The notes under the pieces: model-generated | The model's input: only the letters and a program-made list of their open reading frames with translations | Told to the model about the DNA's origin: nothing | The model's database searches: none | From: Promethearchaeota archaeon | GTDB lineage: Archaea > Asgardarchaeota > Lokiarchaeia > Sigyniarchaeales > SOKP01 | DNA: 64,000 nucleotides | Direction: 5' to 3' | Assembly: GCA_019058245.1 (NCBI GenBank) | Contig: JAHPZJ010000013.1 | Coordinates: 137,166 to 201,165 of the forward strand | Shown: positions 12,510-18,935 of the stretch, piece after piece | Position numbering within the stretch: position 1 is the stretch's first letter | Layout: every line of letters begins with the position of its first letter | Program-made: the position numbers and the translations under genes

Positions 12510-12592
12510 AATGTTTATTATTTGAAAATTTAATATTCTGAAATTTGTCGGACTCCTTTGATTTATTTTAGAATCTTTTTTTTTTTTAAAAT

Positions 12593-12757
12593 GTGACAAA
12601 ACAAAAATCATATTATGATTGGGAATTAGCTTTACGGACTAAGCCTTTACAAAGAAAAAAAAAGAAGAGTATTGATGAAATAATTAATACCCTGGATATT
12701 CCTCATAATGAATTTAAAAAATTCCTTAAATTATGGAAGAGTAAAAATATAATATAA
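12593..12757 (+). pseudogene. 54-codon ORF or gene remnant inside repeat copy 1
   Basis: VTKQKSYYDWELALRTKPL...FLKLWKSKNII* is open in copy 1 and broken by stops or indels in copies 2 and 3. Confidence 0.35.
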
Positions 12758-12865: not shown

Positions 12866-13453
12866 TTAGGGTCGTAAATTTATTGCCAATAAAGCAAATA
12901 CAACGATTAAAACTAGAGCAAACATTACTGAACTCGCTAAGATGATTTTATAGTGATATTGGTTTTCTAGTTTCTCTCGATACTGTATTCTTTTATTTTC
13001 TAATGCCCTTTGGATATTATCCCATTGTTGAAATTCTTTTCCAATTCCAATATTTATGTTTCTATTATTAACGTAATATCTTCCAATACCTCTGGCTAGT
13101 AAGGGTTTATTCCTATTTCTCTTCGAATATTTAACATGAACATTTATTCTATAACACAAATAACAAAAATCTATAAAAAAAAGAAAAAATAATGGAGACA
13201 TAAAGGAATATAGTAAACCACCAAGAAGGAGGATATCGGAATAATACGTATATAAAGGATTGTTTCTAATGAAAGTATAAATAGTTAATGCTAATATTAC
13301 AATTGATATTAGAATACCTATAATTGAGAGACCTAGAATATCATGAAAAATAATTAAAGGCAATATAATATTAAGAGAATTGAGTACCGCTAATATGATA
13401 TCAATATAATTGATAGTGCTCTTTTTGGAATCTTGTTCATCGGTAATAGTCAT
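12866..13453 (-). CDS. Membrane protein, paralog 1
   Basis: Shares QDSKKS, LSIIGI, YTFIRNNPLY and QQWDNI with 13760-14353. Confidence 0.8.
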   Translation of the reverse strand: MTITDEQDSKKSTINYIDIILAVLNSLNIILPLIIFHDILGLSIIGILISIVILALTIYTFIRNNPLYTYYSDILLLGGLLYSFMSPLFFLFFIDFCYLCYRINVHVKYSKRNRNKPLLARGIGRYYVNNRNINIGIGKEFQQWDNIQRALENKRIQYREKLENQYHYKIILASSVMFALVLIVVFALLAINLRP

Positions 13454-13759
13454 TTTAATTTCTAAATGTTTGGTTTTCTTATTGAAAATTATTAACTATT
13501 GATTAAATATGATATTTAAATATTTTGAAAGGTCAAATAACTCCAGAAAATGGATTTATTTCTAGATATAATATTTATTATTTGAAGATTTAATATTCTG
13601 ATATTTTTCAAACTCCTTTGATTTATTTTAGATTTTTTCTTAAAGATTTGACAAAATTAGAATTATATTATGATTAGGAATTAGCTTTATCGACTAAAAT
13701 TTAGCAAAGAAAAGAAGGAAGAAATATTATAAAAAAATAACAAATAACCTTATCAGTGA

Positions 13760-14353
13760 TTAATAGCCCGATGCATAATTTATTGTGATTAATATGAATA
13801 TAACAAAAAAACTTACAGCAAATACAAGAGAAATTATACTAATTTTTGTAGCATTATATTGTTTTTCAATTATGTCTCTCCGTTTAAGTTTTTGATTTTC
13901 TAATTCATGACTGATGTTATCCCATTGTTGAGTTAAGCGTATCGCATTAAAACTGTATAGACCCCCTGCTCTCATCACGAAACGTTGTTTAGCAATGCTA
14001 TTTATTGTCGAAGTGTGACTATTACTTCCTATTAAATAATACAAATATACTATTTCTGGAATTAAAAAAATCCCCAATATAAGATATTTTGTTAATAATA
14101 GACTTAAAAACAGTATAGCAAATAAAAGAATTATATAACAGTAATATAAATATAAAGGGTTATTCCTTATGAAAGTATAAGTGGCCAATGATAAGATCCC
14201 AACTGATAAATAAATACCTATAATTGAGAGTATTATATTTTCATGGAAAATGATTAAAGCGAATATAATAATAAAGAAATTAATTACTGCTATTACAATA
14301 TCAGAATATTTAAGAAAACTTTTTTTAGAATCTTGCTTATTATCAATCGACAT
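13760..14353 (-). CDS. Membrane protein, paralog 2
   Basis: Tandem paralog of 12866-13453; the upstream region is duplicated too. Confidence 0.8.
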   Translation of the reverse strand: MSIDNKQDSKKSFLKYSDIVIAVINFFIIIFALIIFHENIILSIIGIYLSVGILSLATYTFIRNNPLYLYYCYIILLFAILFLSLLLTKYLILGIFLIPEIVYLYYLIGSNSHTSTINSIAKQRFVMRAGGLYSFNAIRLTQQWDNISHELENQKLKRRDIIEKQYNATKISIISLVFAVSFFVIFILITINYASGY

Positions 14354-14714
14354 TTTAATTTATAAATACTTTGGATTTTTATTGATAATTATTAATTATT
14401 GATTAAAAACAATATTTAAGTGTTTTGAAAGGGTAAATAATCCCAGAAAATGGATTTATTCCTTAAATAAAATATTTATTATTTGAAAATTTAATATTCT
14501 GATTGAAATATGCACAATTCCTTTGATTTATTTTAGGAGGTTTTTTTAAAAATACAACAAAACAAGAATTATATTATTGGGAATTAGCTTTATGGACTTA
14601 ACCTTCCTAAAGGAAAAAAATGTAAAAACAGTATGAAAAAACTACAATTCTGGATATTTTCCTTAATGAATCTAAGAAATTCATTTATTAAATTTTAAGC
14701 TCAATTTTGACAAA

Positions 14715-15065
14715 AGTTAAAAAGGACGAGAAGTTGCAATTGAATACTCAGGGCATCAATTGCAATGGTCTTGTTGTATCTTACATAAAGTAAGAATGAC
14801 TTCAATACAATCAATCTGCATCGGGAAAAGAAATACCGTTCATCGAATAATTGCTTATTCTATGATTGGTGTTATCGTTAAATAACCCTTCTAGTTCTTT
14901 CGAATTAGACGGATCGAACTCCGAATATAAGCCTATAAGTTTATATATCTGTTCTAATTGTGCTTTTACACACAATTTCTTTTCATATCGCTACTGATAA
15001 CCTTTCGGTTCCTATGCACTGAAGTTACAATACCACTTCTCACCGTTCATACCGGTAAGTATAAA
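14715..15065 (-). ncRNA. Candidate ~350-nt structured non-coding RNA, family unknown
   Basis: No long ORF, GC raised locally, nested long-range helices, two GAAA tetraloops, upstream TTTAAATA box (~15088-15095) and downstream U-rich tract. Confidence 0.75.
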
Positions 15066-15209
15066 CAAGATATGATTAAATTGAATTATATTTAAAGAAA
15101 CCTATTAATCATTTATTAAATATTAAACATTATAATATGAAACCATAGATTTTTTATGTCGAAGTTATAGAAGAAAATTAAAAGTTAATTTCATTTTAAT
15201 GAGAAAATG

Positions 15210-15314
15210 TTATACAAATAAGCCAACGATTATCAAAAAACAAATGCCTAAAGCGATTAAACCAGAAATTCCAAGAAGAGTCATTAGAATTTCATAAATC
15301 TCTTTAATTTTCAT
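15210..15314 (-). CDS. 34-aa single-TM microprotein
   Basis: MKIKEIYEILMTLLGISGLIALGICFLIIVGLFV*, manually translated. Confidence 0.6.
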   Translation of the reverse strand: MKIKEIYEILMTLLGISGLIALGICFLIIVGLFV

Positions 15315-15753
15315 TTTTTTTAATTTTTCGCCTTTTTCTTATTTTTTATATTTATATCCCTACTCATATATATAAAAATATATATTTAAAGGTTATGCTT
15401 AGGATTTGAAAGATCTCTCATTTTTTATGTTCTAGATCAATTAAAACCTTTTATATATATTCATATATATTTATTCAAAATATATTTCTTTAAAAAAAAA
15501 TTGAGATTCATTGTCTTTGTTTAACTAAATCAAATTCTCATTAAAATATCTATATATTGATATCGTTAATAATATCGTTTCATGTTTAAGCATAGTCTTT
15601 AATTTATGCGTAGTATGTTTTAATAAAAAGTTTCAGTTTTTTCAAAATCTTTTAGTCTCTAACTGATTTTTTAAAAGTCACGTGTCTTTAATATTTTATA
15701 TAAAAATTATAAATACATAAAAATTAGTAAATCAGCATATATGAAATTGAATA

Positions 15754-16557
15754 TTGTTGATCAAAAAGCATTGTATTATGGTTTCTAATCAAAAAAATGT
15801 TCTTAATGGCTCACAAAGCAATTTTCAAAAATCTCATAATAATATTGAAAAATTATTATTTAGTAGTGCATATACTTCTAATAATTTTAATAAAATACCT
15901 CCTATAATTGGTTGTTTAACAGCAGATCGGTATGGAAATACACTTATGGTTTTTGAATATAATTTAAAAAACCAAGACAATTATGGTCCAATCAAATCTT
16001 ATTTATCGGAAGATGAGAAAAGTTTACTAGAAATTGATTTAATTTCCATGTATTTTAGTTCATTAAAAATATTCGCAGGGCAAACAAATATACAGAATTT
16101 ATCTAATTTAGAAATTCATGGATCTAATATCAAAATTTTAATCTTTTTTCTTTTTGAAAATTATATGATAATATTATTTCTTAATTCTAAAACAGAATTA
16201 AGTTTAAAAGAGAAATCTTGTATTGTAGAATATTTTAAAGATAAAATTAAAAAATTTCAATTTGAGTTTAAATATTTTAATGCTTCAAAATCTAGAAAAG
16301 TCTTCAAAATATTAGAAAATAAGGGGAATGCGTGGCTTAAAAAGCTAAATCGAAATTATTTACAGAATTTTAAAAAATCTTATTTTAAAAAGCATGAAAT
16401 GATTGAAGAAATCAAAAGTAGGATAGCTCCAATAATAGAAAGAGTTCTCCATGAATACTTTGAGAATATTCAAGAAGATATTGTTAGTAATGTATCAAAG
16501 GAAATTCAAAATCAAATTCAAGATAAATTATTTAATTTTAAAACAAATTTAATCTAA
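15754..16557 (+). CDS. Hypothetical protein with a longin/roadblock-like segment
   Basis: GCLTADRYGNTL...LISMYFSSLKIFAGQ...LEIHGSNIKI; start may be the ATG at 15778. Confidence 0.6.
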   Translation: MLIKKHCIMVSNQKNVLNGSQSNFQKSHNNIEKLLFSSAYTSNNFNKIPPIIGCLTADRYGNTLMVFEYNLKNQDNYGPIKSYLSEDEKSLLEIDLISMYFSSLKIFAGQTNIQNLSNLEIHGSNIKILIFFLFENYMIILFLNSKTELSLKEKSCIVEYFKDKIKKFQFEFKYFNASKSRKVFKILENKGNAWLKKLNRNYLQNFKKSYFKKHEMIEEIKSRIAPIIERVLHEYFENIQEDIVSNVSKEIQNQIQDKLFNFKTNLI

Positions 16558-16619
16558 ATATTTATTCTGTTTATAAGGAAAAAAATATTTTCACACTGTT
16601 AAATTATTTAAATTTTAAT

Positions 16620-16994
16620 CTATTTAATTTTATGAGAAAGTTTATGCATAATCCACCAGTGACCATTTAATTTCATCAAATTAAAGTAATCAATATATCC
16701 CACCGTTTCACATTCAATTTTAATTTTTACAGCAGCAATATTCTCTGTTATATCAATATAATAAAAATGAGTTTTCCAAGTCAAATTGTTATTTACTTCT
16801 TTAGGATTATACCACGATAAATATTCCTCTTTATCAACAATCCAAAGCTTATTATCTTTATCAAATAAAAAGAATTTCCATTCATCATGTAATATTTGTT
16901 TATACAATTCTGGGTTATTTTTAGCATGACCTTCATGGTAAAAATCCATAATGGCTTTTTTAATCACTTCTTTTTCAGTATGAGTTCTAGACAT
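16620..16994 (-). CDS. NTF2-like (lumazine-binding 2) protein
   Basis: IDITENIAAVKI...YIDYFNLMKLNGHWWIMHK. Confidence 0.85.
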   Translation of the reverse strand: MSRTHTEKEVIKKAIMDFYHEGHAKNNPELYKQILHDEWKFFLFDKDNKLWIVDKEEYLSWYNPKEVNNNLTWKTHFYYIDITENIAAVKIKIECETVGYIDYFNLMKLNGHWWIMHKLSHKIK

Positions 16995-17052
16995 AGTTTA
17001 ATATTTAGAATTTAGACCTCTACTTATAAATATAAATTGTCTTAAATACTTA

Positions 17053-18397: not shown

Positions 18398-18596
18398 TAA
18401 ACCCTTTAAAATTCCTTTAAATATTAAAATTCTTATTACTTATTCTTAGTTTTATTTATTAAGAATTCAATAAAAAATTCTTTTTTAAAATCCTATAAAA
18501 CTTCAAAATTATTCCAAAGGATTTTATAATATCTCATTGATGTTGTTTACTTAAGTTAAATAAAATTTTAAATTAAATCAAAAAAGTGTGATATAT

Positions 18597-18935
18597 ATGA
18601 GTTTTGATGATTTTGATGAGGATTTAGATTTAGCTGGGGAAAAACCAGTAAGATCCAAAACTCCTGCTTCTAAAACTCCTACAGCAGGTAAAAAAGTAAC
18701 TTTGTATTTTATGTCAACCATCGGACCAGGTGAAAAAAAGGAAAAATTAACAGTTAATAACAATAATAGAGTAAAAGATATTAAAAGGACTCTAGGTAAT
18801 CTGTATGGACTTAATCCTAACGATTTTCATTTATCATCTGGTGGAGTTACAATGGATGAAAATAGTCAATTGGATGATTATAGTGTAAATGATGGTGATG
18901 ATATTCTTTTAATCCCTGCAAGTACAGCAGGTTAA
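18597..18935 (+). CDS. Ubiquitin-like protein with acidic disordered N-terminal extension
   Basis: KLTVNNNNRVKDIKRTL...FHLSSGGVTMDENSQLDDYSVNDGDDILLI matches the ubiquitin pattern; ends STAG; followed by a T-tract. Confidence 0.8.
   Translation: MSFDDFDEDLDLAGEKPVRSKTPASKTPTAGKKVTLYFMSTIGPGEKKEKLTVNNNNRVKDIKRTLGNLYGLNPNDFHLSSGGVTMDENSQLDDYSVNDGDDILLIPASTAG

Follow-up and report, generated by a model that had tools for sequence, protein, structure and literature searches.

The window (the whole 64,000-nt stretch of a Promethearchaeota archaeon contig analysed here) carries on its minus strand what is, with a probability of roughly 95%, a stand-alone gene for a stable, non-essential structured RNA that is presumably also abundant relative to other RNAs. 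We document its gene anatomy, secondary structure, modularity and distribution, its presence in an RNA library and its dispensability. A first-pass annotation had proposed an independently transcribed, multi-junction noncoding RNA (ncRNA) of no recognised family; the promoter, terminator, varied neighbouring genes, covariation, metatranscriptome contigs and lack of an Rfam match all bear this out. What is new is the RNA class, which has neither homology nor shared architecture with any catalogued family; a new mechanism is not claimed. The evolution of the class is unusual, with a fixed trunk, crowns that are swapped and stacked, and transcripts of three units, all under clear structural selection. 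Asgard archaea are the lineage closest to eukaryotes, and the finding bears on whether there were large scaffold-like RNAs on the archaeal side of eukaryote ancestry. To our knowledge, almost no Asgard ncRNAs have been described beyond rRNA, tRNA, RNase P RNA and SRP RNA. Such an RNA is not described in the Asgard ncRNA literature that we searched, mostly outside subscription journals; we leave about 10% for an existing description.

Anatomy of the RNA gene

No ORF is present in the gap that holds the RNA gene; this gap is flanked by a membrane-protein gene (13760-14353, minus strand) and a gene that starts at 15754 on the plus strand. The host assembly measures 3.09 Mb, is 76% complete and has a G+C content of 29%; that of the RNA itself is 35%. 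The RNA sequence is single-copy in this assembly, and the RNA model matches one place there. The neighbouring genes vary among loci, and in most loci no gene follows downstream on the same strand.

The upstream regions of 47 loci were aligned. With few exceptions, they contain the same elements in the same order: two CGAC boxes about 31 nt apart, a TAATAA-N4-TTAATAG block and a TATA box, with the conserved RNA sequence beginning about 23 nt after the latter. The CGAC box nearer to the gene is present in most homologues and degenerate in the window; we presume that the distal box is an activator site. From the TATA spacing and the point where conservation begins, we infer that the RNA starts at about 15066; it would end at about 14719, inside a conserved unit that spans about 15161 to 14712. 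In RNA-less relatives, the match to the window ends at about 15161-15211. A promoter weight matrix scored 27.6 at the locus and 16.7 at the next best place in the genome. By eye, the tRNA and SRP promoters of these genomes are unlike the ncRNA promoter; a sigma-70 promoter and terminator scan is uninformative for archaea.

A tRNA-like NCC(A) 3' end was considered and rejected, since CC precedes the U-tract in terminal units and is not found in internal array units; the CC is more simply part of the terminator. The CGAC boxes were also rejected as marks of a regulon or as element ends, because they are not enriched genome-wide and are missing from the polB2 operon promoter. A reversed CGAC box is contained in a conserved block at about 12545-12560 of the window and in homologues (L004, L006, L385-L387), about 45 nt upstream of a tiny gene encoding a YYDWEL motif; this block and the RNA promoter may share a regulator. 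Just upstream of the RNA promoter is an unlisted 34-aa hydrophobic ORF (15210-15314, minus strand), which is kept in G024, G102, G095 and G001, all of them RNA-less.

Table 1. Features of the RNA locus and its surroundings, in window coordinates.
Feature	Coordinates	Strand	Remarks
Distal CGAC(A/T)(A/T)AAA box	15151-15161	-	left edge of the conserved unit; upstream alignment, 47 loci
TAATAA-N4-TTAATAG block	15102-15118	-	BRE position; upstream alignment, 47 loci
TATA box (TTTAAATA)	15089-15096	-	kept across the upstream alignment
ncRNA, about 348 nt	14719-15066	-	long form of the family; predicted ends
P0, 5' leader hairpin	15045-15066	-	optional: missing in G013 and G028, doubled in the G109 clade
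P1, 5' strand GAGAAG	15036-15042, partner 14733-14727	-	near-invariant trunk helix; 98.6% paired
P2, 5' strand	15024-15034, partner 14778-14767	-	trunk; 96.8% paired, 2 pairs changed on both sides
P3, 5' strand	15015-15025, partner 14809-14799	-	trunk, bears the crown; 95.1% paired, 4 pairs changed on both sides
Crown	14810-15010	-	variable; P4, stems P5-P7, six-way junction with P8-P12
P4, GNRA hairpin	15010-14999	-	crown
P5	14998-14993/14815-14810	-	weakest helix, 87% paired
P7	14984-14975/14834-14825	-	conserved across 21 homologues
P8	14977-14956	-	six-way junction hairpin
P9	14954-14916	-	six-way junction hairpin
P10	14909-14890	-	six-way junction hairpin
P11	14886-14871	-	six-way junction hairpin
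P12	14870-14835	-	six-way junction hairpin
P13, side hairpin	14780-14794	-	holds the top covarying pair; missing in the third array unit and in G108
P14, 3' hairpin	14765-14734	-	trunk; three-way junction with P1 and P2
CC and U-tract	14712-14725 (U-tract proper 14723-14719)	-	presumed terminator; CC precedes the U-tract in 60/61 terminal units
54-aa YYDWEL protein	12593-12757	+ (intact copy)	broken copies near 13648-13728 and 14554-14688

Secondary structure and covariation

The minus strand folds with a predicted energy of -98.6 kcal/mol (z = -7.36; 0/100 shuffles were as stable), whereas the plus-strand fold is weaker (z = -5.44). The sense strand is more stable than the antisense strand in 76/79 family sequences, and the family alignment contains 207 G-U cells versus 38 A-C cells. 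The G-U excess and the stabler sense strand point to selection on the minus-strand RNA rather than to DNA symmetry, in agreement with the strand chosen by the first-pass annotation.

The 21 long forms were aligned with MAFFT, without fitting to the structure. In this alignment, 108 pairs in 17 helices are standard in 95.1% of cells, and sliding the partners lowers pairing to 36-44%. Thirty-three pairs change on both sides, compared to 18.4 in shuffles (0/500 reached this number). For 25 divergent short units, pairing holds in 82.7% of cells, and 55/87 pairs changed on both sides. Because relatedness can inflate pair counts, we also counted events on a tree of 33 sequences. This gave 43-48 branch-level double substitutions that preserve pairing, located at 28-30 pairs; with permuted partners, the mean was about 2.5 and the maximum 11. 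The pooled branch test was used in place of a per-pair covariation test, whose power is low: our own tree-aware, R-scape-like script found one pair with E<0.05 in the long forms and none in the short units. Per-pair tests of the same low power found no covariation of pseudoknots or kissing loops. A pseudoknot between the P0 loop and the 3' side of P2 (67-90% paired) was rejected, since it would compete with both P0 and P2 and cannot form in members that lack P0.

All motifs quoted in the first-pass annotation were located where it had placed them, and much of its structure was recovered. The long-range helices 15041-15036/14733-14728, 15025-15015/14809-14799, 14998-14993/14815-14810 and 14984-14975/14834-14825 are conserved across 21 homologues, as are the hairpins at 15010-14999, 14977-14956 and 14909-14890, the side hairpin 14794-14780 and the 3' hairpin 14765-14734. 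The TATA box (15096-15089) is conserved, and the U-tract is found at 14723-14719. In contrast, the closing pair of a proposed T-loop-like hairpin at 14923-14910 forms in 5% of homologues, and its GUUC pairs with GAAC at 14954-14951 (100% of cells); both strands of a proposed GCUUAU/AUAAGC helix belong to the local covarying hairpins P9 and P12. The earlier structure was also incomplete in that P2 (15034-15028/14773-14767), P0 and the extension of the promoter to about 15161 had been overlooked.

The trunk sequence is conserved beyond the needs of pairing: variants of the P1 motif occur in 79/79 sequences, and 5/7 P1 pairs never vary. Over the same 79 sequences, the median member is 71% paired and has a longest single-stranded run of 7 nt. 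The commonest hairpin loops are cUAACg, cUUCGg and cGNRAg; of 571 hairpin loops predicted, 123 are GNRA loops, and P4 retains its GNRA loop in 26/38 long forms. The junction linkers are 1-3 nt long and variable. No reading frame is conserved across the family, and the complementarity of any part of the RNA to the genome is not above that of shuffles.

Trunk, crown and size variants

All members share a trunk made of P1, P2, P3 and P14, whose motifs were found in 74-79 of the 79 sequences; the crown beyond P3 differs completely among forms. In the long-form crown of the window, a GNRA hairpin is accompanied by a long arm that leads to a six-way junction; the short forms (240-295 nt) have a different crown with four hairpins. 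Sizes in the family range from 230 to 670 nt, with natural variants of 230, 275, 295, 350, 380 and 670 nt and of 3 x 250 nt. In the giant 667-nt form (G142 and G146), a single molecule bears crowns of both the short and the long type as well as further similar modules. The loci with this form (L126/L269 and L125) lie directly behind an Hsp20 gene (PF00011, seen for G142) and opposite thioredoxin-reductase-like genes. The size variants provide a ready natural set for cryo-EM and pull-downs, and sister genomes with and without the RNA suit a partner search.

In seven genomes of one clade (G129, G130, G115, G117, G140, G153 and G019), three diverged units of about 250 nt share one promoter and one U-tract. 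Counterparts of units a, b and c in different genomes are 75-84% alike, compared with 49-53% for the units within one genome; the triplet is therefore old, and each unit has been maintained. Judged from these sequences, the distinct and conserved unit types suggest specialised roles rather than plain dosage. Two RNA genes with separate promoters are present in G026, and a single unit resembling an a/c fusion in G122. Modules have been multiplied along three independent routes: two genes (G026), arrays, and the stacked crown of G142 and G146. Degenerating copies, with eroded promoter or helices, were found in G111 (L107) and as the second copy of G101 (L099); these are apparently losses in progress. 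Bin contamination may account for the second copies in G019 and G130.

Distribution and genomic history

A BLAST search returned 20 near full-length homologues from the same genus. The covariance model built from these homologues (R1) matched 55/151 genomes of Promethearchaeia (Lokiarchaeia), all from one family, with 33/49 in the genus of the window genome, 20/40 in a second genus and 1/6 in a third. A model of the most divergent short units (R2) recovered an identical set of 55 genomes; in a 151-genome sample of the phylum, it had no match beyond the family. This narrow range argues for a lineage innovation, not for an ancestor of a eukaryotic RNA. The RNA is usually found at one locus per genome. 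Weak model matches in G065, G044 and G163 (E 0.4-3.6) were dismissed as chance, as were the 97 matches of a loose 3'-end pattern to viral contigs, where none of the examined loci matched the family HMMs, and three bacterial genome and eight metagenome pattern matches, which gave no HMM match. A strict promoter-plus-5' pattern had 0 matches in viral contigs.

The commonest location, in 23/29 divergent loci, is about 100-600 nt after polB2; this site is used in both main genera and by short, long and array forms. Inspection of polB2 loci revealed a 90-aa gene preceding the family-B polymerase and, in the window genome, a RadA-like gene nearby. By analogy with the PolB2-arCOG07300-RadA-like arrangement (PMC4104785), the operon fits PolB2 with arCOG07300. 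The polB2 gene is present in 134/161 genomes versus 55/151 for the RNA, and the site behind it was empty in 37/40 further genomes, picked mostly as RNA-negative. In the window genome, the polB2 site is empty, and the RNA is located at a second site that is common to much of the genus and has MFS, C_GCAxxG and tiny-protein genes as neighbours. Overall, the RNA moved to at least six sites other than polB2, including the one in the window genome. At one locus (L104, G117 contig C272), polB2 is split in two frames, through either a frameshift or an assembly error. In two genomes of another family (L166 in G055 and L167 in G050), a shared noncoding block with GAC-rich repeats lies about 250-350 nt behind polB2; it differs from the ncRNA and may be another conserved element.

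We used a polB2 tree (83 rows) as a single-gene stand-in for the host tree. RNA form and site follow clades on this tree, and at least eight RNA-less clades are nested among RNA-bearing ones. G024, a 100% complete sister of the window genome, is syntenic on both sides of the locus and has neither the RNA nor its promoter; presence and absence at otherwise identical sites recur, and G024 is one of several near-complete genomes that are RNA-less. From these sequence comparisons, the history looks like vertical inheritance with several relocations and frequent loss, at least eight losses in all, among which incomplete bins may add false absences. Losses in eight or more clades give no reason to assume a dedicated partner that is essential. 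Inspection of flanks and empty sites revealed neither terminal repeats nor precise excision.

Expression

Four contigs of the family (256-598 nt; k-mer depths 316, 269, 775 and 11,689) were present in one sediment metatranscriptome. Their coverage is limited to 14818-15049 and ends within the RNA. In DNA, by comparison, two runs of relatives (depth 4-6) extend across the promoter as far as 15330. Judging from loose contig ends, the 380-nt, giant and window types are represented. These contigs, which come from relatives in one run and carry neither strand nor true level, support transcription. Their depth suggests high abundance in sediment RNA, and the RNA would be abundant relative to other RNAs as well. 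The adapter-marked contig end at 15049 was rejected as a processing site, as it may be a reverse-transcription stop in P0.

Comparison with known RNA families

In Rfam 15 (including ROOL, GOLLD, OLE, raiA, HEARO, self-cleaving ribozymes, group I and II introns, and 5S rRNA), no family matched window positions 13000-17000 at E<=10. Searches with the short, array, giant and other forms gave only matches with E>1 that lie outside the RNA. The closest parallels in kind are ROOL, GOLLD and OLE, which are likewise stand-alone, multi-junction orphans. ROOL reportedly equals 16S rRNA in abundance but is non-essential in one strain (bioRxiv 10.1101/2024.12.08.627333), which matches the deep contigs and the losses of the ncRNA. 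However, the ncRNA has no sequence or model match to these RNAs, is archaeal, chromosomal and smaller, has no phage or tRNA link, and has yielded no pseudoknots; its trunk with an exchangeable crown and its diverged polycistronic triplets also set it apart.

The ncRNA resembles RNase P RNA (RF00373) and MRP RNA in its length of about 350 nt, its own promoter, its P1-closed ends and a hairpin between P2' and P1' that is loosely P19-like; it has no P4 pseudoknot, whose CR-I and CR-V motifs were found in 1/79 and 0/79 sequences, respectively. Length and closed ends are also shared with SRP (7S) RNA (RF01857), but the helix-8 motif occurs in 9/79 sequences and is not conserved. RF00373 scored over its cut-off elsewhere in the RNA-positive genomes G006, G018 and G025, and was not found in the 76%-complete assembly of the window; SRP RNA was found elsewhere in 5/5 genomes, the window genome (on another contig) and four RNA-positive relatives. 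Since RNase P and SRP RNAs are located elsewhere in RNA-bearing genomes, the ncRNA is neither. Its dispensability, with near-complete genomes such as G024 doing without it, also sets it apart from RNase P RNA. The SRP RNAs (L036-L040) scored 36-84 bits against a gathering cut-off of 96.5 for RF01857, and standard annotation would miss them. In G018 (contig C66, 15325-15981), two tandem RNase P RNA matches (L030, L034) are both over the Rfam cut-off.

Y RNA and YrlA share with the ncRNA a conserved terminal stem and a variable distal module, and Yrl RNAs occur in tandem copies; in contrast, TROVE (PF05731) was found in 0/5 genomes (three of them RNA-positive; the control matched), and the Ro-binding motif in 0/79 sequences. 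HEARO is similar in length (about 350 nt), but no nuclease gene adjoins the ncRNA, and its 3' end is closed by P1 and the U-tract, leaving no omegaRNA-like guide end. With box C in 3/79 sequences and a terminal ACA in 0/79, it is not a C/D or H/ACA guide. The topology of P1 and P14 is similar to tmRNA and tRNA-like structures; P14, however, is long and lacks a T-loop, and no tag ORF is conserved. ARAGORN made no call at the ncRNA locus. On contig C27 of G000, the same program called a tRNA with a CUA anticodon and a short intron as tRNA-Pyl, probably a mis-spliced call. CsrB/RsmZ sponges and 6S/Ms1 RNAs are abundant, protein-directed RNAs whose effect scales with amount or module number, in the manner proposed below for the ncRNA; the ncRNA has neither a repeated recognition loop nor a promoter-like bubble.

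Search for protein partners

We compared protein families in panels of five genomes. Reverse transcriptase (PF00078) was found in 0/3 RNA-positive and 1/2 RNA-negative genomes. TnpB (PF07282) had no match in the RNA-positive G142 and many in the RNA-negative G024. Double-stranded RNA-binding domains were absent from the five genomes tested, and in these panels none of TROVE, reverse transcriptase, TnpB and dsRBD tracked with the RNA. Vault (PF01505) matched 0/5 genomes, and no control genome matched either. Alba was present in all five genomes tested, RNA-positive and RNA-negative alike; we name it as an example of a general candidate partner, not as evidence of binding.

Possible function and alternative explanations

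Our preferred reading, held tentatively at somewhat less than even odds, is that the RNA is made in abundance, though dispensable, and serves a general RNA-binding protein as a multivalent scaffold or sponge. A dedicated promoter, strong and probably regulated, would drive its transcription. The two ends of the RNA would zip into the near-invariant trunk, formed by the P1-P2-P14 three-way junction and P3; the trunk would protect the ends, likely serve as the docking site of a general, genome-wide RNA-binding protein, and hold a crown of short, tetraloop-capped hairpins that are free to vary in number and order. Rather than through catalysis or base pairing, the RNA would work through its shape and amount, gathering or titrating the protein, and self-association through GNRA loops may occur. 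Such action is the most plausible for an RNA that folds throughout, lacks a guide, an ORF and any known catalytic core, combines a fixed trunk with multiplying modules, appears to be abundant and can be lost. The three routes of module multiplication fit a function that scales with valency. Against a sponge stands that no loop sequence is repeated as CsrB repeats GGA, and that no partner protein co-occurred with the RNA in the genomes tested. An RNP scaffold, one of three roles suggested by the first-pass annotation, is possible. A bolder reading, which we consider possible though rather doubtful, is a new class of modular scaffold. Here the constant trunk would attach to a cellular machine or nucleate a multimer, interchangeable crowns would supply further surfaces for binding, and some lineages would make three specialised subunits per transcript. 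If true, the RNA would share the construction and evolution of a multidomain protein, and this in the closest lineage to eukaryotes.

By analogy with ROOL and GOLLD, the RNA might assemble with itself, through GNRA loops and A-minor contacts, into an RNA-only multimer or cage, with the three-unit arrays as covalent oligomers. Like ROOL, the ncRNA appears abundant and is dispensable and ornate, the GNRA loops are frequent and that of P4 is often kept, and tandem triplets exist; we nevertheless regard a cage as unlikely, given that no pseudoknot or kissing-loop covariation was found in tests of low power, that the RNA is much smaller than ROOL and GOLLD and has no phage or tRNA link, and that its crowns are too variable for a fixed geometry. 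The RNA could also bind RNA polymerase or ribosomes in dormancy. 6S and Ms1 RNAs bind RNA polymerase, and the very deep sediment contigs and a dedicated multi-box promoter that occurs once in the genome would suit an analogous role; strong branching, frequent loss, and the lack of a central bubble or rod shape make it quite unlikely. A further candidate is a role as RNA partner or regulator of a PolB2 mutasome (the damage-tolerance polymerase, a helical protein of about 90 aa, and a RadA-like protein), made upon DNA damage. The frequent position behind polB2, in an operon that fits the published description, favours this role, which is improbable in view of the much wider distribution of polB2, the mostly empty site behind it (in genomes picked mostly as RNA-negative), the relocations, the polB2 promoter without CGAC boxes, and the lack of a template-like single strand.

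A ribozyme had been suggested earlier. An unrecognised ribozyme or ligand-binding RNA with its active site in the invariant trunk junction would explain why the trunk is conserved beyond pairing, and arrays might need processing; we consider it distinctly improbable, as the RNA is dispensable, lacks any known catalytic core (none of the hammerhead, group I, group II or RNase P type is conserved), has short and variable linkers, and is not a UTR element. Patchy occurrence at seven or more sites, presence and absence at otherwise identical sites and the degenerate copies in G111 and G101 would suit a selfish or relic element (a MITE, a non-autonomous mobile RNA gene or a decayed transposase) that folds without a cellular role. 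This reading is largely refuted by the covariation, and we hold it very improbable: compensatory events far exceed expectation and variation is of the G-U, not the A-C, kind; as a rule there is one locus per genome, form and site follow the host tree, the external promoter is conserved, no ORF is conserved, and neither terminal repeats nor precise excision were seen. A base-pairing small RNA or guide (antisense, C/D, H/ACA or omega-type) is scarcely credible. Its own promoter and arrays of distinct units resembling guide clusters speak for it, but no long single strand, C box, terminal ACA, variable 3' tail or target match above shuffles was found. The orphan transposon-derived guide scaffold of the first-pass annotation is not supported either: there is no variable 3' guide, the RNA has no match near the three tnpB genes of the window genome, an RNA-positive genome is without a TnpB match, and no linkage to tnpB, iscB or reverse transcriptase genes was found.

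Genes around the RNA sites

Of 134 genomes in the family, 114 encode a 54-aa protein that has an S-YYDWEL motif and, at its C-terminus, LGI...W..KN; no genome outside the family does. Its gene is usually present in one copy a few kb behind polB2 and recurs near both main RNA sites. The protein has no match in Pfam, the atlas or the PDB. It was rejected as a partner of the RNA, being family-wide and present in RNA-less genomes. In the window, a local tandem duplication comprises this gene and two related membrane-protein genes (12866-13453 and 13760-14353). Further along the window, a 115-aa ORF at 18588-18935 on the plus strand is, by eye, ubiquitin-like and ends in TAG.
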